Part shown: positions 1-46,720 of the stretch, one piece after another | Position numbering within the stretch: the first letter of the stretch is position 1 | Layout of the letters: the number at the start of each line of letters is the position of its first letter | Assembly: GCA_934747965.1 (NCBI GenBank) | Contig: CAKVHI010000006.1 | Coordinates: forward strand, 14,162 to 78,161 | Reading direction: 5' to 3' | Length of the DNA stretch: 64,000 bases | Source of the DNA: an uncultured Clostridia bacterium | GTDB taxonomy: Bacteria > Bacillota > Clostridia > Christensenellales > UBA1242 | Translations under genes and position numbers: made by a program | The notes under the pieces: generated by a model | Databases searched by the model: none | What the model was told of the DNA's origin: nothing | Seen by the model: the letters and a program-made list of their open reading frames with translations, nothing else

Positions 1-743
1 GACCGTTTTCTGATTCGATTATAAACAAAGAAGTTAAAGGTTTGACAGGTGAGGAATATCAACTTGATCAAGTAAGTCATGAACTTCAAGAATTATTTAA
101 AGATTATAATGTTAAAAGGATAGATTATAAGGAAGAAAGCCAAGGCAAAATTGCAACTTATAACTTTAACATGACTCTGGAGAATGGTCATGAATATTAT
201 TTGCAAGTGTCAAAAAAAGGTGGTGTGATAATCACAATTTCAAGTTATCAAAAATCTGTTAAAGATAATATTTCTTTAGAAGAATGTGAAAAGAAAGCCG
301 AAGAATTTGCAGATATGCTTGAAATTAAAAACATGAAAGCCGTTTGGAGTACTAAAATCAATAATGTGGCATATGTTAATCTTTGCACAATTATAAACGA
401 CACAATAATTTATCCTGAAATGATAAAAGTAAAAATTAGTTGTGATAGTGGAGAAATCATAGGTTGGGAAGCACGAACTTATGCTTATAACAAAACTGAA
501 AGAACAAACACAAAGCCTTCAAAAACAGCAAGTCAAGCTCGTGAAAGAGTTAGCAAACTTTTGGATATAGAAACCGAAAAGAAAGCTCTAATTCCACTTG
601 ATTTTAACCGAGAAGTTTTGTGTTATGAATTTAAGTGCACATATAATAATTATGTTTATTATGTTTATATTAACGCAGACACATTAGAAGAAGAAAATGT
701 TTTAAGAGTAATTGATACCTTAGATGGAAATTTAATGATGTAA
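1..743 (+). CDS. ypeB: YpeB-like germination protein (PepSY repeats); 5' end lies outside the window
   Basis: The frame of the 42..743 ORF stays open back to nt 3, so the TTG at 42 is not the true start. The translation shows PepSY-like modules (YYLQVSKKGGVIITISSY; YEFKCTYNNYVYYVYINADTLEEENVLRVID) arranged as in YpeB. Confidence 0.6.
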   Translation, partial: PFSDSIINKEVKGLTGEEYQLDQVSHELQELFKDYNVKRIDYKEESQGKIATYNFNMTLENGHEYYLQVSKKGGVIITISSYQKSVKDNISLEECEKKAEEFADMLEIKNMKAVWSTKINNVAYVNLCTIINDTIIYPEMIKVKISCDSGEIIGWEARTYAYNKTERTNTKPSKTASQARERVSKLLDIETEKKALIPLDFNREVLCYEFKCTYNNYVYYVYINADTLEEENVLRVIDTLDGNLMM

Positions 744-858: not shown

Positions 859-1194
859 TTAGACCCCTGCAAATTGATAAATATAAGGCAACATAACAGT
901 AGAGTAAATAACAGAAATTATTATAGTAACCCCAAGCGTTATCCCAAAAGTGATTCCCCATGACTTGATAAAAGTTTTTCTTGCAATGGTGTTTTCTGGG
1001 TAAAGGCAAATGCCAATAATCAAACCAATTAAACCAAGAAAAATGCCAAGCAAAACGCCCATGCCAGTTTTAGGCTCTGAATACATCTTTTGATTTATTT
1101 CAGAAATTGGGTCCTCTTTTTTTACGGCACATCCGCAATTAATGCAAACAACAGCGTCATCATTAATTTCTTTTCCACATTTTTGACAATACAT
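859..1194 (-). CDS. Zinc-ribbon membrane protein
   Basis: N-terminal CxxC...CxxC (MYCQKCGKEINDDAVVCINCGC) followed by two hydrophobic helices. Confidence 0.6.
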   Translation of the reverse strand: MYCQKCGKEINDDAVVCINCGCAVKKEDPISEINQKMYSEPKTGMGVLLGIFLGLIGLIIGICLYPENTIARKTFIKSWGITFGITLGVTIIISVIYSTVMLPYIYQFAGV

Positions 1195-1364
1195 ACAAAA
1201 CTCCTTATGAATAAATTATATTATAATTTGTTTTTATTGTCAATTATTTGTTGGTTAAATCTTTTGTAGTAAAATATTTTTGTAAAAAAATGGAAAAATA
1301 TGGAATTATAAATATTTTTGTAAAAAAACTAGACAATTTTAAAAAAAATGTTTATAATAAAATT

Positions 1365-2654
1365 ATGGAAAAGATAAATGAACAAAATTTACAAGAACTT
1401 GGTATATTTGAAATAAGAAATATCGCAAGAGAAGTTGGAGTATACTCTCCAACAACACTAAAAAAACAAGATTTAATTGAAAAAATTATGCAGGTTATAA
1501 ATGGAGAAGTTGAACCTTATGTGAAAAAAACAAAGCAGGGGCGACCTCCAAAAAACATAACAACAATCAACGATTTTATTGATGTTATTGTGCCAAAAAA
1601 AACTTTTGAACAGCGTTTTGATAATGCAAAAAACTACTATAATGTTTTTAATGATAATCAAACAAATTTAAATGTGGATGAAGTTGGAAAAAATGAGTTT
1701 TGTTTTAAAGGGCTTGTAAAAGTTTATAACAAAGAATATGCTTTATGCTTTTTAAGTTGCATTGACGACACAAAAAAGGATATAGTTTTTATAAACAACA
1801 TTCAAACTAGTTTTTATAAACTTAAAACTGGCGATGAAATAAGCGGAAAATATATTTTTGTTGATGAAGAAAAACCTTATATTTTAAAAGAAATATATTC
1901 AGTAAATGAAAATGTTGTTACCGAAGATTTCACAAGGAAAGAAGATTATTTAAATTTGATTGCTATAAGTCCTAATCAGAAATTAAAAACTAATATTTAT
2001 AAAGATGACGATGAGATTTTTGCAGACATTGATTTGTTTTGTCCAATAGCAAAAGGGCAAAGAATTTTGCTTAAATCAAAAGGCAATAATCAACTAAACA
2101 ACACAATTTTACACAGGCTTTCAACAGATGAAAACAACCTTAAAGGTTTGTCGATTTTGATTGATGAATCTCCAGAAAGTTATTATGATTTTCTTGCAAA
2201 TTCAAATTTTAAAGTTTTGAGCAACAACTACAATTCTTGCACAAATTTTGATTTAGAGTTTGATGTAAGGCTATCTAATCTTTTAAGAAAAGTTGAAGAA
2301 GGCTATGATATGGCTTTATACATAAACAGTCTTACAAAACTAGAAAAATATTTTGAAAATCATTCAATTTTGAAAAAACATTCGGTTGATGAAAGCTCTG
2401 TTATTGCATGGAATAACATAAAAGATATTATTTTGCTTGGGAAATATACAACTAATGCAGGAAGTTTAACCGTTATTGTTGGCGAAGATTTTAAAGAAAA
2501 TAACCTTATAGAAAGTTTGTTTAACAATATAATTTGTTATAATTATTCTAAATATGAATACACTCTTTTAACTGAAGATTGTAAAACTTTGAATATAGAA
2601 AAGATTCTAACAAAGTCTGAACTTAACAAACTAAAAGCAAAATTAAAAAATTAA
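1365..2654 (+). CDS. Rho-like protein with degenerate ATPase motifs (Rho_N + CSD-like RNA-binding domain + RecA-like core lacking a P-loop)
   Basis: Collinear with Rho: a Rho_N-like LQELGIFEIRNIAREVGVYSPTTLKKQDLIEKI, then KLKTGDEISGKY (Rho: LRTGDTISGK). DLFCPIAKGQRILLKSKGNNQLN replaces DLxxPIGKGQRGLIVAPPKAGKT. ILIDESPE, DMALYINSLTKL (Rho: DVIILLDSITRL) and AGSLTVIV (Rho: GGSLTII) follow. ATG 1365 is preferred over the track's TTG 1248 because TATAAT at 1353-1358 lies 6 nt upstream. Confidence 0.7.
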   Translation: MEKINEQNLQELGIFEIRNIAREVGVYSPTTLKKQDLIEKIMQVINGEVEPYVKKTKQGRPPKNITTINDFIDVIVPKKTFEQRFDNAKNYYNVFNDNQTNLNVDEVGKNEFCFKGLVKVYNKEYALCFLSCIDDTKKDIVFINNIQTSFYKLKTGDEISGKYIFVDEEKPYILKEIYSVNENVVTEDFTRKEDYLNLIAISPNQKLKTNIYKDDDEIFADIDLFCPIAKGQRILLKSKGNNQLNNTILHRLSTDENNLKGLSILIDESPESYYDFLANSNFKVLSNNYNSCTNFDLEFDVRLSNLLRKVEEGYDMALYINSLTKLEKYFENHSILKKHSVDESSVIAWNNIKDIILLGKYTTNAGSLTVIVGEDFKENNLIESLFNNIICYNYSKYEYTLLTEDCKTLNIEKILTKSELNKLKAKLKN

Positions 2655-2712: not shown

Positions 2713-5700
2713 TTATTTAACTTTCATTTTAGTCCTTAACTTAACAAACAAGAATATTCCTCCTGCAACGACTAAAACAGCAATGACAATAACGATTATT
2801 GAAACTGCAGAAAGAGGCTCTTTTTTGTTTAGAACAAAACTTAATTCTGTATTCCCACTTGATGATTTTACTTGCACGACATATGTTCCTTTTGCATCTT
2901 TTGGAATAACAAAAGTGCTAACATCATTTATGCTTGAATTGTTAATTTCAGCAATCACATTATTGTTGACATAAATCTTACATTCACCAATTTGAGTGAA
3001 AATTAAATAAGGGTTATATGATAAAGTGATTTCTTTAGAAGTTTCTCCACCTTCAGCAAGTGTGGAATTTATTTTTATTTTTGCATCTTTATCTCTAATC
3101 CAAACCTTGAATGAATAATTTTGCTGACCTAAAATCAAATTTTGAGAAGATACAAACACTTCATATTCGCCACCTGCAAGATATTTAGCAAGAGTAACAA
3201 TGTCGTTGCCTTCATCATCTTTTGAAATAGAATTTGTATATTCGATTTCGCTTTTTAATGTTAAATTGTAAAGATATGTTTTTTCAAAATCGGACTCAAG
3301 CAAAACTTTTAATTGTTCAAGACTTGACTGATTATATGTTCCATCTTCTTGTGTGTAGATAGGGAATAAGGCAAGAATACGCTTGATTAAAGTTGTTGCA
3401 TCTTTTCCATCTTTCATTACTTTTGTAATGTTTTGACCATTCAAACTTACAAAACTAAATTCTTTTATAGCTTCATTGCTATTTAATATAGTAAAGAATA
3501 TAGTCTTTTTAATTTCAGGGCCATTAGTTGTCAATCTGCCAGAAACTGTAACTTTATAGAAGCCATAATCAGAGAAAATATAATTTTTGTTATCATCTTT
3601 TTTGATGCTCTTTATTTCATTATTATTTAACCATGCTTCAACTTTAAGACCATTTGCTCCTGTTACATATTGTTTTTCATTTAGTATAGTTAAACTAACA
3701 TCAGAATTAAAGATTTGATAATCTACAGGGATTTCATTATTTAATTGGATAGGGACTTCTTTATAAATTGCTAGATTTAAGAAAGTGTTTCCGCTGAATA
3801 GTTGAATGTTGCCAGCAAGGTCCTCAATATATAAACTGTAAATTCCACTTGGAACATCATCTAGTGTTATGATTTGTTCTTGATTTTCAGAATCAATGCT
3901 ATAAATATTTTCATTTAATTCTAACAACTTGTTGTTATAGAATAATTTTAAAACGATTTTGTTTGATTCATCGCTATTTATAATAGGCAATTTCAAAACA
4001 ATTCCATTCAAACCTGTTACAGTATATCCTTTAATAGCAATTTCAGAGTTATCACTAGCATCTGTAATTGAAAGGTTGCTTTCATTTTCAGTGTTATTCA
4101 AAGAGATGTTCAAAAAGTTTGAATTATAATCAATTTTTTTGATTGCGATGTATTTAAATGTGTCAGTGCCTTTCAAAATTTGATAAAGTTTGTAATCTTT
4201 AAAGGCATCTGTTGGAGTTAATGTTTTTAAATCTAAATTAAAGTCGTGATTTACTATAACTTTAGCCTCATAAATTGAGTAATAAACTTCAAAACTTTGA
4301 GGATTTGTGCTTTCAGTGAATTCAATACTTTTAACTGAGCAAGAAACAAGTTCAAAGTTTGTTATATTTTCTTCATTTGTTTCAACGGTGTAGGTCTTGT
4401 TTGTGGCTGTTGTAATATTGAATTTGTAAGTATTCTTTTTGCCAAGTTCGTTTATTGCAACAATTTCATAATTACCTAGGTCAGAGAATGTGTAATCAGT
4501 TGTTGTTATGTTAAATTCTTGTTTTTGTTCTTTTCCGCTTATTGTGTAAGTTCGCGTTACTGAAATATATTGCAAATTAAACAAAGTGTTGTTAATGAAA
4601 CTTAAATGAACATTTTTAGAAGTTGAAATAATGTTATCTTTTTCATTAGCAAAAATTCTTAAACTGTTTCCAGAGCTGTCTGTAAATTCAATTTGAGGCA
4701 TATAAGGGTAGTAGATATAACTATAAACAGTTTGACTTTGAAGTTCTTCATCTAATTTTGTCAAGTCAGTTAAAGTTACAATAAACTTAATTTGACTGTT
4801 AATGTAATCATCTCCAACTAATGAGAACAAGTCTAATTCTGTAGTTTTTTCTGTGATTTCTTTTTTATTTTTGTAAGTGTTTGGAAGTAGTTGATATTCA
4901 AATTCTATGTTATATAATTCTGGGTTGTATTGGAATTTTATTCCTTCTGAATATTGAGTGTAATTTTCGCCATTTTTAGTTACAAATCCAGCGCCATTTT
5001 CAAATATAAATTTGCTTTCGCTTTTTTCACCCAAATATCTAACAGCACTTTGAATTCTTCCAAAATTATCTTCCCAAACAAAGTAATAAACTTTTATTGC
5101 ATTTCTAATCTGTTCGTTGTTTTCATCATCTAAAACATAACAAGTATCGTTAAAAGTGAAAACATAGTTTTGACTATTAAACAATTCATCAGGTATCTCG
5201 GCTTTATTTGAATCTTTTTTAAGTCTTTCTCCTTTTTTTCCGTCTATTACTGGATAAACACTTAAAGATTTAATGTAAGTTGCGTTTTCACTTGAATTAG
5301 GGATTGTTAAAACGATTTTGTTATTGTCGTAATTTTTAATAAAATCTTTAATTTCAAATTCTTTGTTTGGTGTTGAATTTGTGATTGTTAAAGTTTTTCC
5401 AAATTGATTTGAAATTGTTATTTTGCAAACATTTCCATATTCATTTATTTGTGCAAAATTCTTCATTATGGAGTTAATTCTTTCAACCAACAAATTACAC
5501 TGTGTAAAATAATCAAACTTAGAATCATTAACAGCAAAAGGTAGGTATCTTAAATTAAATTCTTCACTATTATTGCCGTTTTCATTAATCAAAACTTTGA
5601 CAGTAAGAAAATTAAAATCATTATTTGTTGAAATTGCTGTTAACTTAAATTGAGGGTCAATTAAATTTGTTTCACTAGAAGTTGTTGTTTGTTCTTCATT

Positions 5701-8700
5701 ACTACCACTTACGGAATATTTAGCCAACAAACCTTGGCTTTCAGTGTAATAAACGGTGTAAACAGAATAGTTGCCAGCCTCATCTGCTTCTATAATTTCA
5801 TAATAGCCTTCTCCTTGGTCGAAGAATGTTTCAGTAATAGAGTTGTATTCTTTGGTTGAGTAAAGTTTTTTACCATCTGTTGTGTAAGTGTTTATATCAA
5901 AACGGTATCTTGATATTGTTTGGTCAGAAAATCTTGCATCTCCCAAAACTAAACTTTGCATATTTTCAATGTTTTGACCAGCAAATTTTTCATATTTTCT
6001 TATATAAATGTTTGCAGTATCAGTTTCATCTGATTTTGTTGGGGCAGAGTTTACAACAAAAACATAATTGTCAAAATTAATATCATTTGATATATCTTTG
6101 TTAACCAAACTTAGTTTTAATTGTTCTTTTTCTGTGTCAAGTAAGAAATTGTCTTGTTGAAGATATTTAATGAAATTTGTGTTTGGACTTGTGTGGTCTA
6201 TTATCATTTCATAATCACAAGTTGAATAATTATTTTGATATTTACTGTCTATGTTATAAGACAAAATCAAATTATATTTTGCTTCCAAACTTTTTCCATT
6301 TTCGAACAAAACATCACTATTTTTTGAAGGGTCAAGAATTGTTAGTATATATTTAAATCTTGAAAGACCTATTTCTGTGCTCTTAAAATTAAATACATTA
6401 CCAATGCTAGAAATATAGTAAATAGTTTTTCCGTTTTCTAGTGTAAATGAGCCAGTTTTTTGAATGTCATTTTCTTTTGTCGTTCTAAAAATAACATTGC
6501 CGTTTTGTTTTAAAATAATGTTGTTTAGGTCTATTGCATACAAAAATTCATCTTCAGGGTCGGTAAATTCAAAACTTAAAGTGCTTGAATTTGTGCTTTT
6601 AACATTGTCTAATTTCTCATTTTCATCTTTTACAAAATATCCAGACGGTGTATTTTTGTTTGTTTTGATTTTTAGTTCAACATAGTTGGCATATTTTTTG
6701 ATTTGATCATATTTGTCTTTACCAGCCAAGTTGTAGTTATCAAAGTCAAAGAATGTGTTGTCAAAAATCAATAATGAATATTCGCCACTACTCAAAGAGA
6801 AATTAGTTATTCTTTCATATTCTTTTTCATCTGTTTTAAATAAAGCAAAGTTGATTTTTAAATTATCTTTATCTTCATTATTCAAACTTTCATATTTATA
6901 AACAAAATTTTGTTTTTCTGAGTTTTTCCATGCAAAATTTAGCATATTTGTTGATAAAGGAATATTGTTTAAAATTAGTTTGTAAATTTTATCTGCTGAA
7001 AGTTCTTTTGCATCAAGAGTAATATTAATATTTTTGCCAATCAAAGTGCTTTGTAATGATTCAAAATAACTTATAGGTGAGTGTCTGTCTACATAAAATG
7101 TTTGAGTGATAGAAGTTTTGTTCTTATAAGTTTTTGTTATGACATATTTTCCTTCCTTAGAAACATACTTTCCGTCTTTATAAGTCAAAACTATTGATTT
7201 CACAATATAATCGCCATAAGCGTTGTTTTCAAAAACCATGTTGCCACTTTCTTTAAGTTCCAAAAGATTATATTGTTCACTTATGCTAGAGAATTTAATT
7301 TGATTATCCGTTTCAACAAAAGGATAAAAATCAAGTATTAAACTTTCCAAATCAAAGCCGTCATTATTAATTTTGTTTTTAAAAGTAATATAAACATTTT
7401 CACTGTTAGTAGGGTGGGTTTTATAAACTCTTGAAGTTATATTATCTTTCTTTCCAAAAATTAAAATTTGATTTCTATCTGTGTTAAGATTAAACTTTTT
7501 AGAAACATCTTTTAATGAAATTGTGTAAATACAATCAAATTCTTTATTTTCTGTGTTTTTTGAAAGGTCAATGCTAAAGATATTGTGTTCAACTTCACAT
7601 TCAATCGTTTTAATTTCATTTTCACTATGTTTGCTAAAAATCTTTCTTTCAATTTTTATTTTATCTAATTTGCTTTTTAAATAAGTTGTGCCAGTTGTCA
7701 AATTTGTATCATTAAAATATTCTTTTGCAAAACTAAGATTGTTGTCATCAATTTTAAATTCAAGAACCTTATAATCTCCAAAAATAACAGAGTAGTTGTC
7801 GGAAATTAGGTTCAAAGAATTGTCTTTTTCATTAAGAATTGCTTCGTTATTTGATACATCAACTAATTTTTTGCTTTCTGCGAGAGCAGAGACCAAACTA
7901 TTGCTTTCAAGAGCGATGCTTGGAGAATTATCAAACAAAACAAAGAAGGTCTGTTTGTTTCCAGCAAGGTCAGTAATTGTAAATTTATAAAGTGCGTTAA
8001 TGGAAATTATTGCATTTGTATTGTCATCTTTAATTTGAAGATTTGATAGGTTTGAAAGATTGTTTAAAGTGTTATTTGAATAAGTTAAATTTTTTCTAAT
8101 ACTGTTTAGTTGATAGTTGTTATAAATCAACAAGTCTTTATCATCAAAATCATATAGTTTGTCTGCTTTTTGATAATTTAAAGAAATGTAATCATAAGTA
8201 ACAGAAATTAAATTGCTTTTGATTTTTTTGTCTTGAACAAAAACTGCAAAATTTTTGTCTGTGCTTGCTTTATTTTCATTTAATGATATTGAAGATAATG
8301 CAAAACGATTTTCTTTTTTCTCGACACTTACAACATCAAACAAAATTTCAGTGGTGTCAATAACAAATCTTTTTTCTATTGTTACTTCACTTGTGCCATA
8401 AGTTAGTTGTACCAAATATTCGCCATTTGTTTTTTTATCAAAATATATATAGTTTTGTGAATTATTTGATTTAATTGAGTAGTCTTTATTCTCTTGCAAA
8501 ATTGTGCCATTTCTGGTTACTTTAATTTTGCTTGGAAGAACAAACGGATTTGTTTGGTCTTTGTTCCAAACACAATAAACATCTTGATTTGTAAACCCAT
8601 TTGCATTAACTAAAGTGCTAAATTGTTCATCGTTATAGAAGTTTAATTGTGGGGTAGAGTTTTCAATTTTAAATATCAAAACTTTATAAAAAGTATCATC

Positions 8701-10164
8701 TTTATAAGTTTGGAATTTGTAAGGAATTATAACAACATACAAACCTTCTTTTTCAAAACGCTTGCTTGTTGTGAAGTCGGATTCACTTGAGCCAAACTCA
8801 TATTCATTAGTCGAAGAGTTTTTGCTAATTAAATAATATTTTGCTCCGCTTAAATTCTCTGTAACATAACTATTTATTTTGATTGGTGCTTGATTTGTTA
8901 CTGCAACTTTGTCTAAAAAATTAGCATTGTTGTTTAAATAAGAAATCACATTATTAATTGTTGCTACATTTTTATCATCTATTTTTTCATAAAAATCTTC
9001 AATATAACTAAAATCACTTTGATATAAATCATTATACAAACATTTGTAATCTTGATTTAAGCGTTTAATATCGTTGTTTGTTTCTTGATAATTTTTATAT
9101 AATGCTTCGTATCCAAAATTGTAAAGCAAAGGAGTTTTAAGGCTTTTAACATTGCTTGATTTTTCTTCATCAAGAATTGTTAAATTTTTGTTTTCACCTA
9201 TGCAAATCAAATATTTTATTTCATATTTTCCAATTCTGTTAAGTTCTAATTTAAGTTTTGATTCATTCAAAGTTAAAATTTTGCTTTCATAAATATTGTT
9301 GTCGGAAGATACTAATTTAAATTTAGTAACATTATTTTCTTCCATACTTTCAATTTTTAAAGTAACAGAAGTTTCGTTGTATGTATAATTTATAATTGGC
9401 GAAAATTTGTATGGATCAAAAGTTATAGTAGGGTAGTTTGCATTACTCTTATTGTAAAAATACACATCAGTTTCATTTCCATTTTGCAGACAATTTTCAA
9501 TTTTAGGGCTATTTTCACCATTTTTGCCAAAGTAAATTGTTTCATCTATTAAATAAAAATCAAACGAAGTTGAGTCGCTTATAATATTAGTGCCGTTTGT
9601 GGTGTAGGAATAATTAAATGTAAGATCGATATGAGCACTTTCTGAATATTCAACATTTGAAAGAGTTGTTTGAATTGTTGAAAAATCAAATGCTTTTATT
9701 AACACAAAATTTTGTGAGCCTGATATTACATTGTATGAATCAAGCAAGAAAGATTTTTTATCGTTTTTAGTGTAAATCGTAAGGCTTGTAGACAACATTT
9801 TGATAAAAGTTGTGTTTTGGCTTGGAGATAAATATACCAAAACGGCTTCGTAATTATCAGGATTAATAGATGCTACATTGCCACTAGAAATTAAATTGTC
9901 ATCTTCTGTGCTGTTTAAAATGCTATCTTTTTTATTATAAAGTTCTTCTTCAGTATATTCACCAAGATGTTTTGGAATGTTTTGCCCCTCTTCATCTTTT
10001 GAAATATTATTATCGCTATATTTCACTTTTTTTACAGTCAAACTTACACTAGTGGATGCTGCTTCAAGGCTTACTGTGTTTATTGGATTTATAACGCCAA
10101 ATAAACCAGCAAATAATGCTAGTGCAAAAACAATGATAAAAGACATTTTTTTAAATTTACTCAT
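2713..10164 (-). CDS. Giant (2483 aa) secreted, C-terminally membrane-anchored surface protein; putative adhesin built from divergent beta-sandwich modules
   Basis: A 7.45-kb uninterrupted ORF in AT-rich DNA. Signal peptide MSKFKKMSFIIVFALALFAGLFGVINPINTVSLEAAS. C-terminal helix plus basic tail VSIIVIVIAVLVVAGGIFLFVKLRTKMKVK, and no LPXTG. Recurrent G-x-Y-x-hydrophobic strand signature, three times followed by D/E-x-AGN. Confidence 0.85.
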   Translation of the reverse strand: MSKFKKMSFIIVFALALFAGLFGVINPINTVSLEAASTSVSLTVKKVKYSDNNISKDEEGQNIPKHLGEYTEEELYNKKDSILNSTEDDNLISSGNVASINPDNYEAVLVYLSPSQNTTFIKMLSTSLTIYTKNDKKSFLLDSYNVISGSQNFVLIKAFDFSTIQTTLSNVEYSESAHIDLTFNYSYTTNGTNIISDSTSFDFYLIDETIYFGKNGENSPKIENCLQNGNETDVYFYNKSNANYPTITFDPYKFSPIINYTYNETSVTLKIESMEENNVTKFKLVSSDNNIYESKILTLNESKLKLELNRIGKYEIKYLICIGENKNLTILDEEKSSNVKSLKTPLLYNFGYEALYKNYQETNNDIKRLNQDYKCLYNDLYQSDFSYIEDFYEKIDDKNVATINNVISYLNNNANFLDKVAVTNQAPIKINSYVTENLSGAKYYLISKNSSTNEYEFGSSESDFTTSKRFEKEGLYVVIIPYKFQTYKDDTFYKVLIFKIENSTPQLNFYNDEQFSTLVNANGFTNQDVYCVWNKDQTNPFVLPSKIKVTRNGTILQENKDYSIKSNNSQNYIYFDKKTNGEYLVQLTYGTSEVTIEKRFVIDTTEILFDVVSVEKKENRFALSSISLNENKASTDKNFAVFVQDKKIKSNLISVTYDYISLNYQKADKLYDFDDKDLLIYNNYQLNSIRKNLTYSNNTLNNLSNLSNLQIKDDNTNAIISINALYKFTITDLAGNKQTFFVLFDNSPSIALESNSLVSALAESKKLVDVSNNEAILNEKDNSLNLISDNYSVIFGDYKVLEFKIDDNNLSFAKEYFNDTNLTTGTTYLKSKLDKIKIERKIFSKHSENEIKTIECEVEHNIFSIDLSKNTENKEFDCIYTISLKDVSKKFNLNTDRNQILIFGKKDNITSRVYKTHPTNSENVYITFKNKINNDGFDLESLILDFYPFVETDNQIKFSSISEQYNLLELKESGNMVFENNAYGDYIVKSIVLTYKDGKYVSKEGKYVITKTYKNKTSITQTFYVDRHSPISYFESLQSTLIGKNINITLDAKELSADKIYKLILNNIPLSTNMLNFAWKNSEKQNFVYKYESLNNEDKDNLKINFALFKTDEKEYERITNFSLSSGEYSLLIFDNTFFDFDNYNLAGKDKYDQIKKYANYVELKIKTNKNTPSGYFVKDENEKLDNVKSTNSSTLSFEFTDPEDEFLYAIDLNNIILKQNGNVIFRTTKENDIQKTGSFTLENGKTIYYISSIGNVFNFKSTEIGLSRFKYILTILDPSKNSDVLFENGKSLEAKYNLILSYNIDSKYQNNYSTCDYEMIIDHTSPNTNFIKYLQQDNFLLDTEKEQLKLSLVNKDISNDINFDNYVFVVNSAPTKSDETDTANIYIRKYEKFAGQNIENMQSLVLGDARFSDQTISRYRFDINTYTTDGKKLYSTKEYNSITETFFDQGEGYYEIIEADEAGNYSVYTVYYTESQGLLAKYSVSGSNEEQTTTSSETNLIDPQFKLTAISTNNDFNFLTVKVLINENGNNSEEFNLRYLPFAVNDSKFDYFTQCNLLVERINSIMKNFAQINEYGNVCKITISNQFGKTLTITNSTPNKEFEIKDFIKNYDNNKIVLTIPNSSENATYIKSLSVYPVIDGKKGERLKKDSNKAEIPDELFNSQNYVFTFNDTCYVLDDENNEQIRNAIKVYYFVWEDNFGRIQSAVRYLGEKSESKFIFENGAGFVTKNGENYTQYSEGIKFQYNPELYNIEFEYQLLPNTYKNKKEITEKTTELDLFSLVGDDYINSQIKFIVTLTDLTKLDEELQSQTVYSYIYYPYMPQIEFTDSSGNSLRIFANEKDNIISTSKNVHLSFINNTLFNLQYISVTRTYTISGKEQKQEFNITTTDYTFSDLGNYEIVAINELGKKNTYKFNITTATNKTYTVETNEENITNFELVSCSVKSIEFTESTNPQSFEVYYSIYEAKVIVNHDFNLDLKTLTPTDAFKDYKLYQILKGTDTFKYIAIKKIDYNSNFLNISLNNTENESNLSITDASDNSEIAIKGYTVTGLNGIVLKLPIINSDESNKIVLKLFYNNKLLELNENIYSIDSENQEQIITLDDVPSGIYSLYIEDLAGNIQLFSGNTFLNLAIYKEVPIQLNNEIPVDYQIFNSDVSLTILNEKQYVTGANGLKVEAWLNNNEIKSIKKDDNKNYIFSDYGFYKVTVSGRLTTNGPEIKKTIFFTILNSNEAIKEFSFVSLNGQNITKVMKDGKDATTLIKRILALFPIYTQEDGTYNQSSLEQLKVLLESDFEKTYLYNLTLKSEIEYTNSISKDDEGNDIVTLAKYLAGGEYEVFVSSQNLILGQQNYSFKVWIRDKDAKIKINSTLAEGGETSKEITLSYNPYLIFTQIGECKIYVNNNVIAEINNSSINDVSTFVIPKDAKGTYVVQVKSSSGNTELSFVLNKKEPLSAVSIIVIVIAVLVVAGGIFLFVKLRTKMKVK

Positions 10165-10348
10165 AATAACTCCTACTTTAATATGAATATTTTAACATAT
10201 TTTCAAATTTCAAATCAAACAAATAAATATATTATTTAAAAATAATTTATATATAATATACATTCTTATTTTTTGTTAAATTTTTATTTTTATCAAATTA
10301 ATTAAGTTATTGTAAAAAATTTTTTATAAAGCATTGAAATTATCCAAA

Positions 10349-21961: not shown

Positions 21962-22033
21962 CTACAATATATTTTGTAAAAATTTGTATTCTTACTTGAC
22001 AAATAAAAAAAATATGGTTATCATAATGTGATT

Positions 22034-22987
22034 ATGAGTTTTTTTGAGGGTTTATGGGAAGCATTTAAAGATGCTTCAGTTGATTGTTTAAAGTTGTTAC
22101 CAATTTTGTTTTTAGTGTATTTATTAATAGAATATCTTTCTCACAAAAAGGAAGAAAAGTTTGTTAATCTTTTAAGTAAAAACAAAAAAACAGGGGTTTT
22201 GATGGGGGCTTTATTAGGCTGTATTCCTCAGTGTGGTTTTTCAACTGTTATGGCGGACATGTTCAATCATAAATTGATTGGAATTGGAACATTAATCGCG
22301 GTTTTTGTTGCCACAAGTGATGAGGCAATTCCTATCATGATAAACTATCCAAACCAAATTTTAAACATTTTAATGCTTGTTGGAATTAAATTTTTGCTAG
22401 CGCTTGTTTGGGGTTATTTGTTTTATTTTGTTTATTCATTAATAAGCAAGGCAGAACACAAAAAAGTGAACCTTGCTCAAACGGGGGCAAGTATAAATAC
22501 GCAAGAATATTTGCACAACCATGAATGTTTGATTGATGAAAAGCATATTCATCATCATGAGCATGACCACGACTTAAACAAGCCTTGTGATTGTTGCACC
22601 GATAACATTTTTTTAAGTGCATTAAAACATAGTTTGATGATAGCATTATTTGTTTTTATTGCAAATATGATTATTAATCTAATTTTTGTTTTTGTGGGTG
22701 AGGAAGTTTTGATTAACGCTCTAATGGTTTCACCTGCTCTTCAAATTTTGTTAAGTCCATTAATTGGAATGATTCCAAATTGTGTTTCAAGCGTAGTTTT
22801 GATTGAATTATATTTGAATGGTGCACTAATTTTTCCAGCATTGATTGGTGGTTTAAGTGCTGGAAGTGGGGTTGGACTTATAGTGTTGTTTAAAAACGCA
22901 AAAAACTTAAAACAAAATTTGTTGATTTTGTTATCGCTTTATCTAATAGGTGTTTCAACGGGATTTTTGTTAACGATATTTTTCTAA
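22034..22987 (+). CDS. Polytopic permease with a His/Cys-rich loop (putative metal-ion transporter, ArsP_2-like)
   Basis: About 8-10 TM helices. GCIPQCGFS and ATSDEAIPIM motifs recalled from the putative heavy-metal/manganese exporter family. Central loop HNHECLIDEKHIHHHEHDHDLNKPCDCC. Confidence 0.5.
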   Translation: MSFFEGLWEAFKDASVDCLKLLPILFLVYLLIEYLSHKKEEKFVNLLSKNKKTGVLMGALLGCIPQCGFSTVMADMFNHKLIGIGTLIAVFVATSDEAIPIMINYPNQILNILMLVGIKFLLALVWGYLFYFVYSLISKAEHKKVNLAQTGASINTQEYLHNHECLIDEKHIHHHEHDHDLNKPCDCCTDNIFLSALKHSLMIALFVFIANMIINLIFVFVGEEVLINALMVSPALQILLSPLIGMIPNCVSSVVLIELYLNGALIFPALIGGLSAGSGVGLIVLFKNAKNLKQNLLILLSLYLIGVSTGFLLTIFF

Positions 22988-24653: not shown

Positions 24654-25289
24654 TTAAACTGGATATATTGGCAAGTCAAAGAACCCCGGACAAACATCGT
24701 TAGTACTGTAGTCTTGGCAAGGCGGAATAGGACAATAGCCATAGCTTGGAACCAAAATATTTGTGTTTACAATAACCCTTAATATAATTTGGATGCAAGC
24801 ATCGCAACTGAATGTGTTATCGCCAAGATAAGTAGCATCTGCTATTGCAAGACCAGCAAACACATCAATAGTGAATGGAACTACTGAAGGTTGAGGGACA
24901 AATAAAATTACATCTTGGTTGAAAGATAAAACTGTTGTTCCACTGCCTTCTTTTCCTGTGCTGTCTGTAAAGTTTACAATGATTGGCACATTAACTGTTC
25001 CGCTAACTCGTGCAAAATTTGGTCTGTCTGGAAAACGGTCAATAACTAAGTTAGAAAAATATGCGTCCCCATTAGTTTGTGCACTAACAAAAGTATAAGG
25101 CTCAACTAAGTCTTGAGGAGTGATATTTGTTAAAGTAAATGTTAAACCTGTTTCTGAGATTTGTTTTCGGCAACTGTCAAAAACTTTGTTAGTTTGTATA
25201 CAAACTCTTTCGCATAAACCGTTTAATGGATTTCCCGTGATAGGTCCTGGACATCTGTTGTCTGCTTTAGTGTTTGAAAAAAATGACAT
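24654..25289 (-). CDS. Hypothetical Cys/Pro/Gly-containing protein (211 aa), probably highly expressed
   Basis: Strong SD (GGAGG) and a dedicated terminator. Ten Cys residues, including NRCPGP, GLCERVCIQT, DSCRK, SCDACIQ, GYCPIPPCQD and DVCPGF. No family recognised with confidence. Confidence 0.6.
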   Translation of the reverse strand: MSFFSNTKADNRCPGPITGNPLNGLCERVCIQTNKVFDSCRKQISETGLTFTLTNITPQDLVEPYTFVSAQTNGDAYFSNLVIDRFPDRPNFARVSGTVNVPIIVNFTDSTGKEGSGTTVLSFNQDVILFVPQPSVVPFTIDVFAGLAIADATYLGDNTFSCDACIQIILRVIVNTNILVPSYGYCPIPPCQDYSTNDVCPGFFDLPIYPV

Positions 25290-26158: not shown

Positions 26159-26259
26159 AATGCTATTTTATTCACAATAATAATTAATATGAAGCAATCG
26201 CTTTGTTTTTTTAAATCAAATTTGCTTTCTCATGACTTTTGATAATTTTAACAAAACTA

Positions 26260-26287
26260 TTGACATTTTTTTGTTTTGTGGTATACT
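26260..26287 (+). promoter_or_regulatory. Sigma-A-type promoter
   Basis: TTGACA (26260-65), 16 nt ending in TGg, then TATACT (26282-87). Confidence 0.6.
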
Positions 26288-26306
26288 TTTGATAAAGGAT
26301 ACGAGT

Positions 26307-26867
26307 ATGAAAAAAGTAATAAAAAATCAAACAAAGTCAAATCAAATTAACAAAAAAACAAATCAAACAAAAAAGCAAGCCATTAAAGCAACAAACAGAC
26401 CTCAAAAACAAGAGAAATTTACAAAAATTCAAATAGTTTCTTTTGTTAGAGAATTAAAGAAACAATTTAAAAAATATAAAAATATTGAAAAATTAACTGT
26501 AATTGACACTGTTGAATCAGGGCTTCCAAAAATGAAAACCGATGAAAAATATTTTCTTTGTGCAAATCAAAATGGAAGGCCAGTTGTAAAAACAGGCTTT
26601 ATGCTTAATTATGGCTATAAAAAACTTGCAAGTGGTTGCTTTGTTCCTGTTGATAGACCTGCTGTTTTGGCACTAAGAACTTCAAAAAATATTGAATTTT
26701 CAGATTCTTTTGGTGCAAACACAAAACTTAGAGCAGGAGATTATGTTGTGGTTTACAATAAAAATATAATTGGTATGAAAAAATCAGAATTTGAAGAAAA
26801 TTATAAACCAGACAAAACTGCAAAATCTATTTTAAATTCTTATGAAAATCGAGAAAAAACTTTATAG
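26307..26867 (+). CDS. Hypothetical protein with a Lys/Gln/Thr-rich N-terminus
   Basis: ATG 26307 is preceded by AAAGGA. The C-terminal half contains ...LRAGDYVVVYN..., weakly reminiscent of the PGDYG motif. The track's start at 26232 precedes the promoter. Confidence 0.5.
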   Translation: MKKVIKNQTKSNQINKKTNQTKKQAIKATNRPQKQEKFTKIQIVSFVRELKKQFKKYKNIEKLTVIDTVESGLPKMKTDEKYFLCANQNGRPVVKTGFMLNYGYKKLASGCFVPVDRPAVLALRTSKNIEFSDSFGANTKLRAGDYVVVYNKNIIGMKKSEFEENYKPDKTAKSILNSYENREKTL

Positions 26868-29135: not shown

Positions 29136-29945
29136 ATGAAAAAAAATAATTATGATGCCTATGCAAAATATAGATATAATTATAAACCGCAAAAATATAG
29201 CAAAAAAGGTAACAAAGTTTTTGCAATTTTGTTTGTGCTTTTATGTGTTTCTGTTGTTATTTTTTTCTCTATTAGTTTTTCAAATTTTTTGGTGGTAGGA
29301 AAAGTTGTCAACATAAATTCATCCTATTTGCTAGACACAAAAACTCTTTATGCTTTAAGTTTAGATAGTGTGAATAGTTTGGAAGATGCAAATAAAAAAA
29401 GCCTAGAGCAACAAAAGCAAGGCGGGGCAGGGTTTGTTTATGCAGTAAGTAACAGTTACTATCTTGTAAGTTCAATTTATGCTTCGCAAAAAGATGCTCA
29501 AAAGGTCTTAGAAAACCTAAAATCTTCTAACATTTTTGCCAAAGTAATAAAAATAAATCTTCCAGCAATAAATTTGAAAGTTAGTTTAAACTCTAATTCA
29601 ACAAAAATATTGTCTGACGGATTAAACTTATTTTATCAGAATTATCAGTCTTTATATAACTATTCACTAGATTTTGATAAACAAAATATAGATTTAATAA
29701 AATTAAAAAGTTTAATAAAGGACCGACAAAACCAAAATTTAAAGATTATAAATGAATTTTCAAGCCATTTTGAAAAAAGTTCAAATATCGCAATTTTATA
29801 CACAAAAATATATTTGAATAAACTAAATCAAAGCCTTGAAAATTTACAACTTCAAGATGAAAGCGTAAATTTATCAAGTCAAATTAAGCAAACTTATTGC
29901 AAAATAATAAATGAATACTTAAATTTGTGCAAAGAGATAAACTAA
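29136..29945 (+). CDS. Membrane-anchored protein with a possible SPOR-like domain
   Basis: One N-terminal TM helix (VFAILFVLLCVSVVIFFSI). GGAGFVYAVSNSYYLVSSIYASQKDAQKVLENLK resembles a SPOR repeat. Confidence 0.45.
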   Translation: MKKNNYDAYAKYRYNYKPQKYSKKGNKVFAILFVLLCVSVVIFFSISFSNFLVVGKVVNINSSYLLDTKTLYALSLDSVNSLEDANKKSLEQQKQGGAGFVYAVSNSYYLVSSIYASQKDAQKVLENLKSSNIFAKVIKINLPAINLKVSLNSNSTKILSDGLNLFYQNYQSLYNYSLDFDKQNIDLIKLKSLIKDRQNQNLKIINEFSSHFEKSSNIAILYTKIYLNKLNQSLENLQLQDESVNLSSQIKQTYCKIINEYLNLCKEIN

Positions 29946-41265: not shown

Positions 41266-44200
41266 TTATTTCTTTTTATTTTTTAACTTTTTTTCTCTTT
41301 TTTCTTTTTTCTCTTGCTTAAGTTGTTTTTTGTAAGCTTTCCATTCTTCAACAAGTAGGCGTTCTTCTTCAAGAATTGCATCAATTTCTTTTTCAATTTC
41401 AAGATATTTTTGCATTAATTCTTCACGATTTGCTTGATATTTTTCTTTTCTTAATTGTTTAACCCTATTTTTAGCTTCAAGTTTAAACCTTTTGGCTTCG
41501 TTTTTAGCTTCTAAAGTGTTTACATCAGAGTAAGATTGCTTAATCTTAGCATCAACTTTTTCGTGTTCTTCTTTAATTTCTTGTTTTAAAGATTTACTGT
41601 TTTTGTATTCGTTTTTATTTTGTTGAATTTCATTTTCAAGCTCTTCTAAACGTTTTCTTAATTCGTTTAGTTTTTCTTCTCGTTGTTTTATTCTTTCACG
41701 CTTTTCATATTCTTTCACAACAGTTTTTGCTCTGTCATAATCTTTAACTTTTGCCTTAACTGGCATTTTGAAGTTAATTTTTCTGATTAACAAGCCAATC
41801 ATAGCAATTAACAATGCAATACCAATTATCAAACTTGGAACAACAAGCCAGTCAAAATTTAATGCGCTTGAATTATCTTGATTGTTGTTATTGTCGTTAT
41901 TTGTTGTGTTTGTATCGCCAATTATTAAAGTTTTTGTGTCATTTTCTGTTTTATTTTTCTTGGCTTCATTAAAAGCATCTTCGCTAATTTGATTTACAGT
42001 TAAGTTGTCAAAGAATGCATAGCCACTTGTCAATGCATTTTCATTTCCAAGGCTTAAATTGAAATAAATTGTTGTATCATTTGTTGCACTAACAAAGAAA
42101 GTGTAGGTAGAGAAGTTATCATTTTCTTGAATTTCTGCGATTTCAGCATTAATTCCACTTAAACTTACTTTAGCACCGATTTTATAAAGATTTCCTTTAT
42201 CGTCATATTGTTTGTTTGCATCATCTTGTTTTAAGTTATATGTTCTTACACTTGCAGTAATTTTGTAATAATTTTCATTTGAAAGTTTGTAACCATTTGA
42301 TTTTAAAGTGTAATAAGCATCTTGCTTGTTGTGAATAACCAAAACATAATCGTTATCTCCACTAACATCGGCAGGGTAGGTGTTAATATTAACAATACCT
42401 GCTTCAATTTCGGCTGTTAGGCTTGAATTTTTTGTGCCTGTGAAATTGTCCGCAGAGAATATTTTGTTTGTGCTATTTTCGCTTCTTAGGCTAAAATCAA
42501 TTTTTGTTAAATCACATTTTTGAGTTAAATTAGAATTTGTTATATTGTTGAACACTTCTTCAGTAGAATCGGCAATAGAGAAGTTGTCGATATAACAATA
42601 GCCTTTTTCTTGTTTTTGGTTGTTTCCTAAACTTACTGTAATGTTTGCCTCTAAATCGCTAGTAGAAGTTAAAACATAAAAACTTACAGTTTGCCAAGCA
42701 TTATTTGTGTTTATATTAAATAATTTTCCAATAGAATTTCCGTCTGAATTTTTAACAACAACATCAACGCCGTTAAACAAAATTGCATTTGTGTTAATTT
42801 CAAAACTAATTTTGTAGTATTTTTTAGTTTCTAGGGTAGAAGCAGTTAATGCAAAATTACTGCTTTTTAAACTTTGATAACCAGCATCTTGGTTTGCCAT
42901 AACAAAAACATTTTGATAATCTAAATATTCATTAATAATTCCGTTATAGTTGTTGCTGTTATCATCTTTTGTTACAGTCCAATCTTTTGCTTTGAATGGG
43001 CTAGTTTCGTTCGTTGTTTCAAAATCTATATTGTTAAATGAACTGTTTGTAATGCTGTCTGTTCCACTAAAACCAGTAAAATCGGCAGTTTTACAATTTG
43101 AACTTGATGAATTGTTACTAAAATCTTTTGAAGTTATTTCAAAAAGTTTGATGTTATCAAAAAATACATAACCAATGGCTTTTTCTTCTAAGCCAAGTGT
43201 TAAAGTAGCATAAGAATCTTTAAAAGCATTGCCAGTAATAAAGAATGAGTAGGTAATCCAATCGTTTGTGGCTTCATTAGTTTTGTCGCTTGTTGAAACT
43301 CCTGAAAAACTTACGCTTGCTGGTGTAAATTTATATCCTTCGCTGTAAGGATTTTTTTGTTCAAGTTTAATTTCAGCCCCGCCATTTGAGAAACTTGAAG
43401 TTTTAACATCTATTGAAAGTTTATAAAGTTTATGTCTTTCAATTAAAATGTCATTAGATACAAAAGCAGTGTAAGCTGAATTGTAGTGGCTAATTAACAA
43501 TGCTTTTGTGTTGTTGGCTCTGTTTGCACTTGTAGGGTCAACTACATTATTGATTGTGTTGTCAAAATTATTTCCAATACCAACAACTTTTGCAACATTG
43601 TTAACTGTGCTTGTTGAAGATGAAGAAGAAATTGTAAAGTCCAGGCCAGAGTTTTCAAAGTCCCCATTCAAAATTCCGTTAGAAGCAGAAACATCTTTAT
43701 TTGTTAAAGTAATAACTTTGTTTGTTGTTAAAGTGCTTCCAATTTCATTATAATATTGTTTTTCATTCAATTTGTATGCGTTAATGTTGTCAAAGAATAC
43801 TGCGCCAGCGCTTGAGTAGCTGTTTTTAGAGCCAATAAACATAACAAATTTTACAGTTTGACTTTGGTCGTTAGTGTGAATGTAAAAACGATATTCTTTC
43901 CAGTTTCCACGAGTTGAAATATTTTCCATCTTGCTGTTTTCAAGATTGTCTAGTGTTTCATTTGAAAGATACAAACTAGCAGAACTTGCAATGCCATCAG
44001 TTTCAAATTGAGTGTAAACTAAGCAACTAACAAAATAATAACTATTTTTTTCTAGGTTAAATGTTGATGATTCATAACCATAACTAGATTTTAAATTTTT
44101 GTTGTTTATCATCAAAATTTTGTTATCTTCGCAAACTTTTGGTTTTGATGGGTTAAAGTCTAGTTTATAATCTTCTTTATAATCATTGAATTTATTAACA

Positions 44201-44463
44201 TCAACATCAATAACCCCGCTTACTGTGCTGTTTTCAGAGCCAACGGCGGTAAATGAATTAGGCTTAGATAAACCCGATTGAGTGTTGCTAGTAAAATCTG
44301 AATTTGGTATGCTAATTTGTTTATAGGATGCAACATCTGCAAAAACTTCATTTTTGGATATGCCCACATAAGAAAGCACACCCATAAAACTTGTAAAAAC
44401 TAGCAATAAAACTAAAATTGAAATTAGAAATTGTTTTTTAATATTTGTTGTAATTTTTTTCAT
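41266..44463 (-). CDS. Type I membrane protein (1065 aa): signal peptide, four CBM-like jelly-roll modules, TM helix, and a roughly 200-aa Lys/Glu-rich coiled-coil cytoplasmic tail
   Basis: There are four module ends: GAVFFDNINAYKL, GYVFFDNIKLFEI, GYCYIDNFSIADS and GYAFFDNLTVNQI. Module starts look like NSDF/NGDFEN/NSSFNN. An Asn-rich linker precedes the TM helix LVVPSLIIGIALLIAMIGLLI, and the tail is KE-rich. Confidence 0.8.
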   Translation of the reverse strand: MKKITTNIKKQFLISILVLLLVFTSFMGVLSYVGISKNEVFADVASYKQISIPNSDFTSNTQSGLSKPNSFTAVGSENSTVSGVIDVDVNKFNDYKEDYKLDFNPSKPKVCEDNKILMINNKNLKSSYGYESSTFNLEKNSYYFVSCLVYTQFETDGIASSASLYLSNETLDNLENSKMENISTRGNWKEYRFYIHTNDQSQTVKFVMFIGSKNSYSSAGAVFFDNINAYKLNEKQYYNEIGSTLTTNKVITLTNKDVSASNGILNGDFENSGLDFTISSSSSTSTVNNVAKVVGIGNNFDNTINNVVDPTSANRANNTKALLISHYNSAYTAFVSNDILIERHKLYKLSIDVKTSSFSNGGAEIKLEQKNPYSEGYKFTPASVSFSGVSTSDKTNEATNDWITYSFFITGNAFKDSYATLTLGLEEKAIGYVFFDNIKLFEITSKDFSNNSSSSNCKTADFTGFSGTDSITNSSFNNIDFETTNETSPFKAKDWTVTKDDNSNNYNGIINEYLDYQNVFVMANQDAGYQSLKSSNFALTASTLETKKYYKISFEINTNAILFNGVDVVVKNSDGNSIGKLFNINTNNAWQTVSFYVLTSTSDLEANITVSLGNNQKQEKGYCYIDNFSIADSTEEVFNNITNSNLTQKCDLTKIDFSLRSENSTNKIFSADNFTGTKNSSLTAEIEAGIVNINTYPADVSGDNDYVLVIHNKQDAYYTLKSNGYKLSNENYYKITASVRTYNLKQDDANKQYDDKGNLYKIGAKVSLSGINAEIAEIQENDNFSTYTFFVSATNDTTIYFNLSLGNENALTSGYAFFDNLTVNQISEDAFNEAKKNKTENDTKTLIIGDTNTTNNDNNNNQDNSSALNFDWLVVPSLIIGIALLIAMIGLLIRKINFKMPVKAKVKDYDRAKTVVKEYEKRERIKQREEKLNELRKRLEELENEIQQNKNEYKNSKSLKQEIKEEHEKVDAKIKQSYSDVNTLEAKNEAKRFKLEAKNRVKQLRKEKYQANREELMQKYLEIEKEIDAILEEERLLVEEWKAYKKQLKQEKKEKREKKLKNKKK

Positions 44464-46576: not shown

Positions 46577-46720
46577 AAATTTTGAACTTTGTTTAATAAA
46601 AACCAGTAATTATTTGTTTAAAATATGATGTGTTTTGTAAAAAAACATTAAATAATTTATTAAAAAAGGTTGAAAAAATTTTTTTATATGATATAATAAA
46701 CATAGATTTTAGGAGATATT

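Follow-up and report, generated by a model that had tools for sequence, protein, structure and literature searches.

Transcription terminator Rho has been treated as a conserved ATP-driven motor, and surveys of its diversity have focused on insertions and on presence or absence. Elsewhere among RecA-fold and ring ATPases, noncatalytic members are well established, including the alpha subunit of F1-ATPase and the delta and delta-prime subunits of clamp loaders, in which the fold serves assembly or regulation. The closest described category within Rho itself is that of the "Rho-like sequences" of Moreira et al. 2024, defined in that survey as having just one domain of Rho, or N-terminal plus RNA-binding domains together, and drawn from 2730 complete genomes, not from the metagenome-derived lineages considered here (PMC11347177). 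Our literature search found no paper on an ATPase-dead (pseudo-ATPase) Rho family. Here we describe such a putative family, starting from a gene near the beginning of a 64,000-nucleotide stretch (hereafter, the window) of contig CAKVHI010000006.1 from an uncultured Clostridia bacterium of the Christensenellales. A domain search would place its product in the Rho-like category, because it would report Rho_N and, weakly, the RNA-binding domain but would not call the Rho ATPase; however, that category is operational, whereas the ATPase domain of the window protein is present as a fold and appears dead.

The gene is an open reading frame (ORF) of 429 amino acids on the plus strand, with an ATG at 1365 and a stop at 2652-2654, as placed by a sequence-only reading of the window that preceded this analysis (Table 1). 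In-frame upstream starts are possible (TTG at 1248 and ATG at 1290); homologs, however, have their first residue at the position equivalent to 1365 and are conserved just after it. At the G+C content of the window (27%), about 8% of random codons (about 1 in 12) would be stops, and the chance of 429 stop-free codons is, by our arithmetic, about 1e-16, so the ORF is not a chance event.

Profile, sequence, and structure-model comparisons indicate that the gene encodes a descendant of Rho in which the N-terminal helical, oligonucleotide/oligosaccharide-binding (OB), and RecA-like domains were kept. Pfam Rho_N matched residues 9-43 above its gathering score (E 4.5e-7, 30.2 bits), and Rho_RNA_bind matched weakly (16.7 bits; gathering score, 27). 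The Rho models matched below their cut-offs, and far below for the first two: PRK09376 (NCBIfam; E 5e-25, 88 bits versus 315), TIGR00767 (E 5e-21, 75 bits versus 509.45), and NF041509 paralog_Rho2 (NCBIfam; Rho, short form; 41.4 bits versus 628). By sequence, the closest solved structure was Thermotoga Rho 3L0O (E 5.5e-13). An hhalign comparison of 44 family members with 15 canonical Rho sequences aligned the two profiles along their entire lengths with a probability of 100% (E 3e-46), which bears out the earlier claim of collinearity with Rho from end to end; the strings quoted in support of that claim align as proposed. The AlphaFold2 model of the window protein had a predicted local distance difference test score (pLDDT) of 81.5 and a predicted template modeling score of 0.71, with residues 59-108 at low confidence and predicted to be disordered. 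In a Foldseek search with this model against PDB, the first 50 matches were all Rho (best E 4e-22), and the OB plus RecA-like body superposed on Rho structures with a root mean square deviation (rmsd) of about 3.3 Å over about 345 columns. The most diverged subtype of the family (about 360-385 amino acids) often has no sequence match to E. coli Rho; a model of a 385-amino-acid representative (pLDDT 86.8) nonetheless folds like Rho (Foldseek E 4e-20; about 300 columns at an rmsd of 2.8 Å). Drift in the sequence of the body thus appears to leave its fold intact, whereas at the N terminus it is the sequence itself that is conserved. Canonical Rho (E. coli 1PV4 and 3ICE, Thermotoga 3L0O, and the TIGR00767 and PRK09376 models) thus has the three domains in the order found in the window protein and matches its fold throughout; the differences are the motor and RNA-contact residues described below and, on the side of the family, an added invariant GRPPK motif and a disordered linker of about 45 residues.

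Catalytic and RNA-site residues are numbered here by E. coli Rho, for which we take as reference a 419-residue sequence; its length and the invariant columns K181, K184, T185, E211, R212, D265, and R366 of the canonical alignment agree with the published numbering. At Walker A, E. coli GQRGLIVAPPKAGKT aligns with GQRILLKSKG, a three-residue gap, and NNQ in the window protein, a deletion within the PPKAGKT loop that carries K181, K184, and T185. No GK[ST] occurs anywhere in the 429 residues, so the P-loop is not merely shifted; together with the aligned deletion, this rules out a displaced but functional loop, which the sequence-only reading had named as a refutation of its claim. Walker B is likewise destroyed, as had been noted, with DVIILLDS aligned to DMALYINS and D265 changed to N. 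Beyond what was first recognized, the Arg valve (R212 to S) and the Arg finger (R366 to L) are gone, and the Q-loop and R-loop, which form the secondary RNA site in the central channel, are deleted or replaced both in the window protein and across 57 family members. What is kept comprises the GQR, D-E-x-P-E, and GSLT segments and the equivalents of D210, E211, P213, E214, N340, S363, and T365. Judged by these alignments, the window protein has lost every element for binding and hydrolyzing ATP and for pulling RNA through the ring, in line with the original view that it cannot hydrolyze ATP as Rho does. It falls outside functional Rho as curated models and the literature define it, because most of the defining features for which we looked are missing from its sequence.

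The loss extends through the family. The P-loop was missing in all 57 close and intermediate members and retained in only 4 of 157 full-length representatives (P0218, P0241, P0243, and P0267; L060 4485-5891), which lie at the same sleB-ypeB locus and have neither the Arg finger nor the catalytic Glu. Their loop is GERGSGKT, unlike the PPKAGKT of Rho, and they have a DD at Walker B and a Lys at the position of the catalytic Glu; because of this Lys and the missing Arg finger, these four may bind nucleotide without hydrolyzing it.

The RNA-binding architecture, which the sequence-only reading had called intact, held up in part: the OB fold is present, and the cytosine-reading residues are not. 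In canonical Rho, G61, G63, R66, and D78 of the primary RNA site are invariant, and F64, Y80, and E108 nearly so. The window protein has G61 to E, G63 to A, F64 to L, R66 to F, and D78 to I, consistent with its Rho_RNA_bind score below the gathering threshold, and retains only aromatic character at this site (F62 to Y and Y80 to F); the equivalent of E108 is K by MAFFT and E by hhalign.

Searched against 5.8 billion proteins, the window protein matched 57 relatives without a P-loop, with identities from 74% down to about 22%, followed by canonical Rho. In a scan of one genome per GTDB species, the gene was present with an intact ORF in 56 species, so that the survey of P-loop-less Rho homologs proposed at the outset turned up a large family. 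The hosts are almost exclusively AT-rich uncultured gut Clostridia that carry spore genes. Nearly all are metagenome-assembled genomes with 25-40% G+C, recovered from the guts of animals and humans and labeled Christensenella, Christensenellales, Clostridia, or Candidatus Onthoplasma. Some family-bearing assemblies (L008, L018, and L057) are labeled Spirochaetales or Lachnospiraceae; because their locus is conserved, errors of binning or naming are a more probable source of these labels than a broader range of hosts. Another sequence, L056 (Opitutales), is an ordinary canonical Rho caught by a pattern match. Family members are currently named "hypothetical protein" or "Rho termination factor N-terminal domain-containing protein" at NCBI and, for one member at JGI, "transcription termination factor Rho"; the last name is misleading for this family.

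Ratios of nonsynonymous to synonymous substitution (dN/dS) between the window gene and its closest relatives, rough values with synonymous sites near saturation, were 0.16-0.20 for the whole gene, 0.05-0.07 within residues 1-66, 0.16-0.24 in the OB domain, and 0.17-0.31 in the RecA-like domain that no longer carries a motor. Together with intact orthologs in 56 species, these values indicate that the family is clearly maintained by purifying selection, as had been supposed from the open frame alone. Homology to an enzyme family, loss of the catalytic residues, and purifying selection are the attributes of a pseudoenzyme, and all three were found here by sequence comparison. The motor having been lost while selection maintains the family, its job must presumably be something other than that of Rho. 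In keeping an ATPase fold under selection without catalysis, the family resembles the alpha subunit of F1-ATPase and the clamp-loader delta and delta-prime subunits; the difference is that those are built, with catalytically active partners, into hetero-oligomers of defined makeup.

The sequence-only reading had overlooked the features that are most conserved and most informative, namely the KQGRPPK module at the N terminus and an upstream operator. The module is by far the most constrained part of the protein. It joins the Rho_N domain, which gives weak matches to helix-extension-helix (HeH)/SAP domains, including a SAP DNA-binding domain in PDB, to the only basic segment of the protein (residues 47-66; isoelectric point, 9.8, compared with 5.3 for the whole protein). 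Across 44 sequences G47, T56, G59, R60, P61, and K63 were invariant, and among 142 representatives the motif core was QGRP in 76, KGRP in 40, and RGRP in 12; for the family as a whole the motif can be written (K/Q/R)GRP[PA]K. The GRPPK motif sits at the start of the predicted disordered stretch, and it has the features of an AT-hook-like motif: a G-R-P core, basic flanks (KKTKQGRPPK), and a flexible region (from residue 59 the pLDDT is under 50). H-NS (QGR) and Lsr2 (RGR) have Q/RGR as their AT-hook-like motif, and the AT-hook in its classical form is RGRP (PMC4466236). The family shares with these and with eukaryotic AT-hook proteins the Q/K/R-G-R-P core, the basic flanks, and the flexible segment; however, the surrounding fold is unrelated, and the canonical sister clade of the family has Ala in place of Arg.

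A profile of the N-terminal 74 residues recovered 637 clusters (50% identity) at E of 1e-10 or lower among 1.8 billion representatives. The module also occurs as stand-alone proteins of about 100-120 amino acids with a short C-terminal helix and as twofold and threefold tandem arrays (P0326, 184 amino acids; P0219, 186 amino acids), and one stand-alone gene (L055, 3012-3314) shares a genome with a full-length member (L013). From these arrangements the module appears to be autonomous, and the stand-alone and tandem Rho_N plus GRP proteins constitute an undescribed family of small proteins in the same bacteria.

A homologous module, ending in G[AR]P[PQ]K, is found in a clade of canonical clostridial Rho proteins of about 470 amino acids (P0060 and P0353-P0470; here called P0060-like), whose conserved N-terminal insertion ends K/R-G-A-P-P-K-I-K-I-D. 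The module profile scored a median of 41 bits on P0060-like Rho and spanned the motif in 97%, compared with 20 bits, over Rho_N only, on P0057-like Rho, another AT-rich canonical clade. In a neighbor-joining tree, a rough method open to long-branch effects, the whole family formed a long-branched sister of the P0060-like clade, and the four P-loop-bearing members were nested within it, which would allow for repeated losses of the loop. P0060-like Rho, the nearest canonical relative in this tree, thus shares the N-terminal module, including ...G..xP......G[AR]P[PQ]K, and differs in keeping all ATPase and RNA-loop motifs, in mostly having GAPPK, and in its locus (argS-HAD-HI0933-rho-uvrBA). Because the canonical sister clade carries a form of the module, the motif would predate the loss of the motor; because that form is mostly GAPPK, the ancestral role of the motif was probably not that of an AT-hook, and the arginine of GRPPK is, on this comparison, a derived feature. 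A G-R/A-P-P-K motif following Rho_N that the family shares with active clostridial Rho proteins offers a handle on how atypical Rho factors load or dock.

Canonical rho in AT-rich relatives lies after yabP-yabQ-divIC or in the argS-HAD-HI0933-rho-uvrBA order, unlike the locus of this family. A phmmer search of all six frames found no canonical rho in the window, yabP-yabQ-divIC is absent from it, and its uvrB and uvrA have no adjacent rho, unlike those of L061. Nor was canonical rho found in any fetched flank of the family loci, and the 56 family genomes shared no contig, record prefix, or neighboring NCBI accession with canonical Rho (240 clusters for contigs), a low-power comparison that is not evidence of absence. 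The family gene is likely, though not securely, a paralog of canonical rho.

The family occupies a conserved locus among sporulation and germination genes. The order sipL-spoIIR-sleB-ypeB-gene-giant protein-TraG was found in L060, L068, and L069 and, from the 3' part of ypeB onward, in the window. P0243 lies at sipL-spoIIR-sleB-ypeB-gene. P0045, which is 31-33% identical, has no P-loop but does have DERPED plus an S-x-T-R-K Arg-finger segment, and its locus (spo0A-x-veg-sipL-spoIIR-sleB-ypeB-gene-2471-amino-acid protein-TraG) has both flanks as in the window. A single locus thus appears to hold a series from ATP-loop-bearing to fully stripped forms. The wider, shorter subtype lies at tex-spo0A_C-only gene-x-spmA-spmB-arsP_2-DUF2383-like-mazF-gene.

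The gene is preceded by a promoter-like sequence whose layout is the same in its closest relatives (L002-L007), in which the -10 TATAAT ends 5-7 nucleotides before the ATG. No Shine-Dalgarno sequence was found upstream of the window gene or of these relatives; with the -10 ending 6 nucleotides before the ATG in the window, the mRNA is probably leaderless in this subclade. More distant orthologs carry AGGAG upstream of the start. Directly upstream of the promoter, most relatives have a perfect palindrome, TTTTGTACAAAA, at the position held in the window by the proximal copy of TTTTGTAAAAAA. Across 56 loci (846 kb), 44 of the 87 copies of the palindrome fell within 150 nucleotides upstream of the gene (38 of 56 loci), a density of 5.3 per kb compared with 0.051 elsewhere. 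TGTCGAA, the recognized Spo0A box (PMC3485338), reached 2.5 per kb in the same interval compared with 0.088 elsewhere (15 of 56 loci), and one or the other element was present upstream in 49 of 56 loci. The only other recurrent site for the palindrome was a pair of copies, spaced 20 bp apart and lying directly upstream of a gene that encodes Spo0A_C alone, about 131 amino acids without a receiver domain (L025 4378-4409, L028 4646-4677, L034 4880-4911, L045 5862-5894, L046 6391-6423, and others). This looks like an autoregulated stand-alone Spo0A-like factor with a site in common with the Rho-derived gene, and we infer from the distribution of sites that Spo0A or this Spo0A-like protein probably controls the family gene. 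Elsewhere in the window, TTTTGTAAAAAA recurs at 46633 and 48640, upstream of ppx-like and hemN-like genes, and these occurrences are compatible with chance.

The reading that we favor, with confidence evenly balanced between its being right and wrong, is that of a nonmotor binding or scaffold regulator of Rho descent tied to Spo0A-type control. The protein would act by binding rather than by translocation. Its Rho-like body would be a folded, probably oligomeric scaffold displaying several copies of the module, and the module would grip a conserved ligand, either nucleic acid or a partner in the transcription machinery, inherited from the Rho ancestor. Spo0A, or a DNA-binding protein resembling it, would set the expression of the gene, and the product would then regulate transcription or RNA passively at about the time the cell turns to sporulation. 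In B. subtilis, Rho levels have been linked to sporulation entry and progress (PMC11599450, PMC5540618). If this reading is right, a major group of uncultured bacteria of the gut has reused the Rho scaffold for a nonmotor job, and the operator and the sporulation neighborhood provide a testable link of Rho-type proteins to Spo0A control outside Bacillus.

Several observations weigh against the scaffold-regulator reading. The window copies of TTTTGTAAAAAA are imperfect, four occur in the window where 1.7 would be expected by chance, and no canonical TGTCGAA lies near the window gene, only two of these copies. The sporulation-gene synteny may only mirror inherited gene order. For a nucleic-acid binder, the basic part covers only about 20 residues of an otherwise acidic protein, which is weak, and the canonical RNA-contact residues of the OB domain are replaced. 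The sister clade mostly has GAPPK, with no arginine, and all family members are metagenome derived.

An alternative is that the protein antagonizes a co-resident canonical Rho and lowers Rho-dependent termination, either as a poison subunit in mixed hexamers, one of the roles floated in the sequence-only reading, or as a decoy for the ligand of the module. This would fit the homology of the N-terminal module to that of the canonical clostridial sister clade, the predicted retention of the Rho fold, and a locus unlike canonical rho loci, as that of a duplicate would be; the Spo0A-type sites upstream would fit as well, given that a fall in Rho is needed for sporulation to start in B. subtilis (PMC11599450). 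We nevertheless regard it as unlikely, in view of the missing canonical rho in the window and the negative, low-power comparison of contigs and accessions, the loss of the inter-subunit ATP-pocket residues, and the stand-alone modules, which suggest that the N terminus can act without a ring. The C-terminal body has, moreover, diverged until E. coli Rho is undetectable by sequence in most short members, which is hard to square with a conserved hetero-hexamer interface, and the poison-subunit version is therefore somewhat disfavored. A more specific proposal, to which we give slightly less credence again, is an "anti-Rho": an ATPase-dead duplicate of clostridial Rho under Spo0A control, made at the sporulation transition and competing or co-assembling with canonical Rho. 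If true, the module and ring scaffold would have been kept and the motor lost, and Rho-dependent termination would be lowered as B. subtilis achieves by shutting the rho promoter. Confirmation of either antagonism or Spo0A control would sharply raise the value of the finding.

The module could also make the protein a nucleoid-associated or promoter-binding DNA-binding protein, in which HeH plus K/Q/R-G-R-P reads the AT minor groove, the Rho-like body multimerizes it, and its own AT-rich palindrome might be a target. We give this about as little weight as the antagonist. The QGRP, KGRP, and RGRP cores with flanking lysines and a disordered segment, their likeness to the Q/RGR of H-NS and Lsr2 and to the RGRP AT-hook (PMC4466236), the weak HeH/SAP matches, the tandem arrays, and the low G+C content of the host genomes (25-38%) all point this way. 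The GAPPK of the sister clade makes the motif older than any AT-hook role, however, and the protein is acidic. In Rho itself, Rho_N contributes to the binding of single-stranded, not duplex, nucleic acid. Improbable, and more so than the proposals above, is that the protein is still a terminator and the only Rho of its lineage, acting independently of ATP by allosteric trapping of RNA polymerase or binding nucleotide in some other way. The retained GQR and D210-to-T365 equivalents, the four orthologs with a P-loop and a Walker B DD, and the failure to find canonical rho in any fetched sequence from family genomes could be read in its favor, as could the statement that small AT-rich Bacillota often lack Rho (PMC11347177). 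It would have to accommodate a deleted Walker A, the absence of Arg finger, Arg valve, Q-loop, and R-loop, replaced residues at the primary RNA site, scores far under the curated Rho cut-offs, and long branches that point to a changed function. Last, the lost catalytic motifs and fast sequence evolution might suggest a decaying gene without function, a notion contradicted by the data and of next to no likelihood: dN/dS well under 1 in every folded domain and intact ORFs in 56 species rule it out, the predicted folds are confident even in the most diverged subtype, and the promoter and operator are conserved.

Table 1. Features of the Rho-derived gene and its neighbors, in coordinates of the 64,000-nucleotide window
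Feature	Position	Strand	Basis or remark
Predicted coding sequence, Rho-derived pseudo-ATPase	1365..2654	+	429 amino acids plus stop; ORF listing, profile, PDB-sequence, and fold matches
Rho_N helix-extension-helix domain, residues 1-46	1365..1502	+	Pfam Rho_N; weak HeH/SAP matches
Basic segment, residues 47-66, GEVEPYVKKTKQGRPPKNIT	1503..1562	+	Family-invariant positions; GRPPK at nucleotides 1539-1553
Variable acidic linker, residues 67-108, predicted disordered	1563..1688	+	pLDDT < 50; dN/dS 0.19-1.5
Rho-type OB fold, residues 109-185, primary RNA-site residues replaced	1689..1919	+	Pfam, hhalign, MAFFT, model
RecA-like domain, residues 226-429, without catalytic or RNA-translocation elements	2040..2651	+	Alignments; pLDDT > 90; dN/dS 0.17-0.31
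GQR kept and Walker A loop deleted, residues 231-243, GQRILLKSKGNNQ	2055..2093	+	Alignments
LIDESPES, residues 265-272; E211 equivalent kept, Arg valve R212 to S	2157..2180	+	Alignment
Walker B remnant DMALYINSLTK, residues 315-325; D265 to N321	2307..2339	+	Alignments
Promoter-like TAGACA-17-TATAAT, 11/12 consensus	1330..1358	+	-10 ends 6 nucleotides before ATG
Distal copy of upstream element TTTTGTAAAAAA	1278..1289	+	Motif search
Proximal copy of TTTTGTAAAAAA, abutting the -35	1316..1327	+	Motif search
ypeB 3' part (germination protein), conserved upstream neighbor	42..743	+	Pfam YPEB_PepSY1-2, E 1.8e-28; synteny
Zinc-ribbon membrane protein, 111 amino acids, between ypeB and the gene	859..1194	-	This lineage only
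2483-amino-acid protein without Pfam match, conserved convergent downstream neighbor	2713..10164	-	ORF list, Pfam, synteny
TraG/VirD4 coupling protein	11332..13362	-	Window gene order
Type IV secretion pilin	13749..14117	+	Beside giant protein and TraG

Among the neighbors, the 2483-amino-acid protein has a signal-like N-terminal segment and a membrane-anchor-like C-terminal segment. Its pairing with TraG is kept in a distant relative (L068 11446-21075), and because of this conservation the pair appears to be a lasting part of the chromosome that was not inserted recently. Further ORFs without a Pfam match lie at 10334-11248 (plus strand, 304 amino acids), 24654-25289 (minus, 211 amino acids), 26232-26867 (plus, 211 amino acids), 29136-29945 (plus, 269 amino acids), and 41266-44463 (minus, 1065 amino acids). 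The zinc-ribbon gene has its own promoter at 1243-1215, a perfect TTGACA-17-TATAAT that diverges from that of the Rho-derived gene. An ArsP_2-type permease is encoded at 22028-22987 on the plus strand; in the wider family its homolog lies about 2 kb upstream of the gene (spmA-spmB-arsP_2-x-mazF-gene), and this placement indicates that the locus was rearranged in the lineage of the window.

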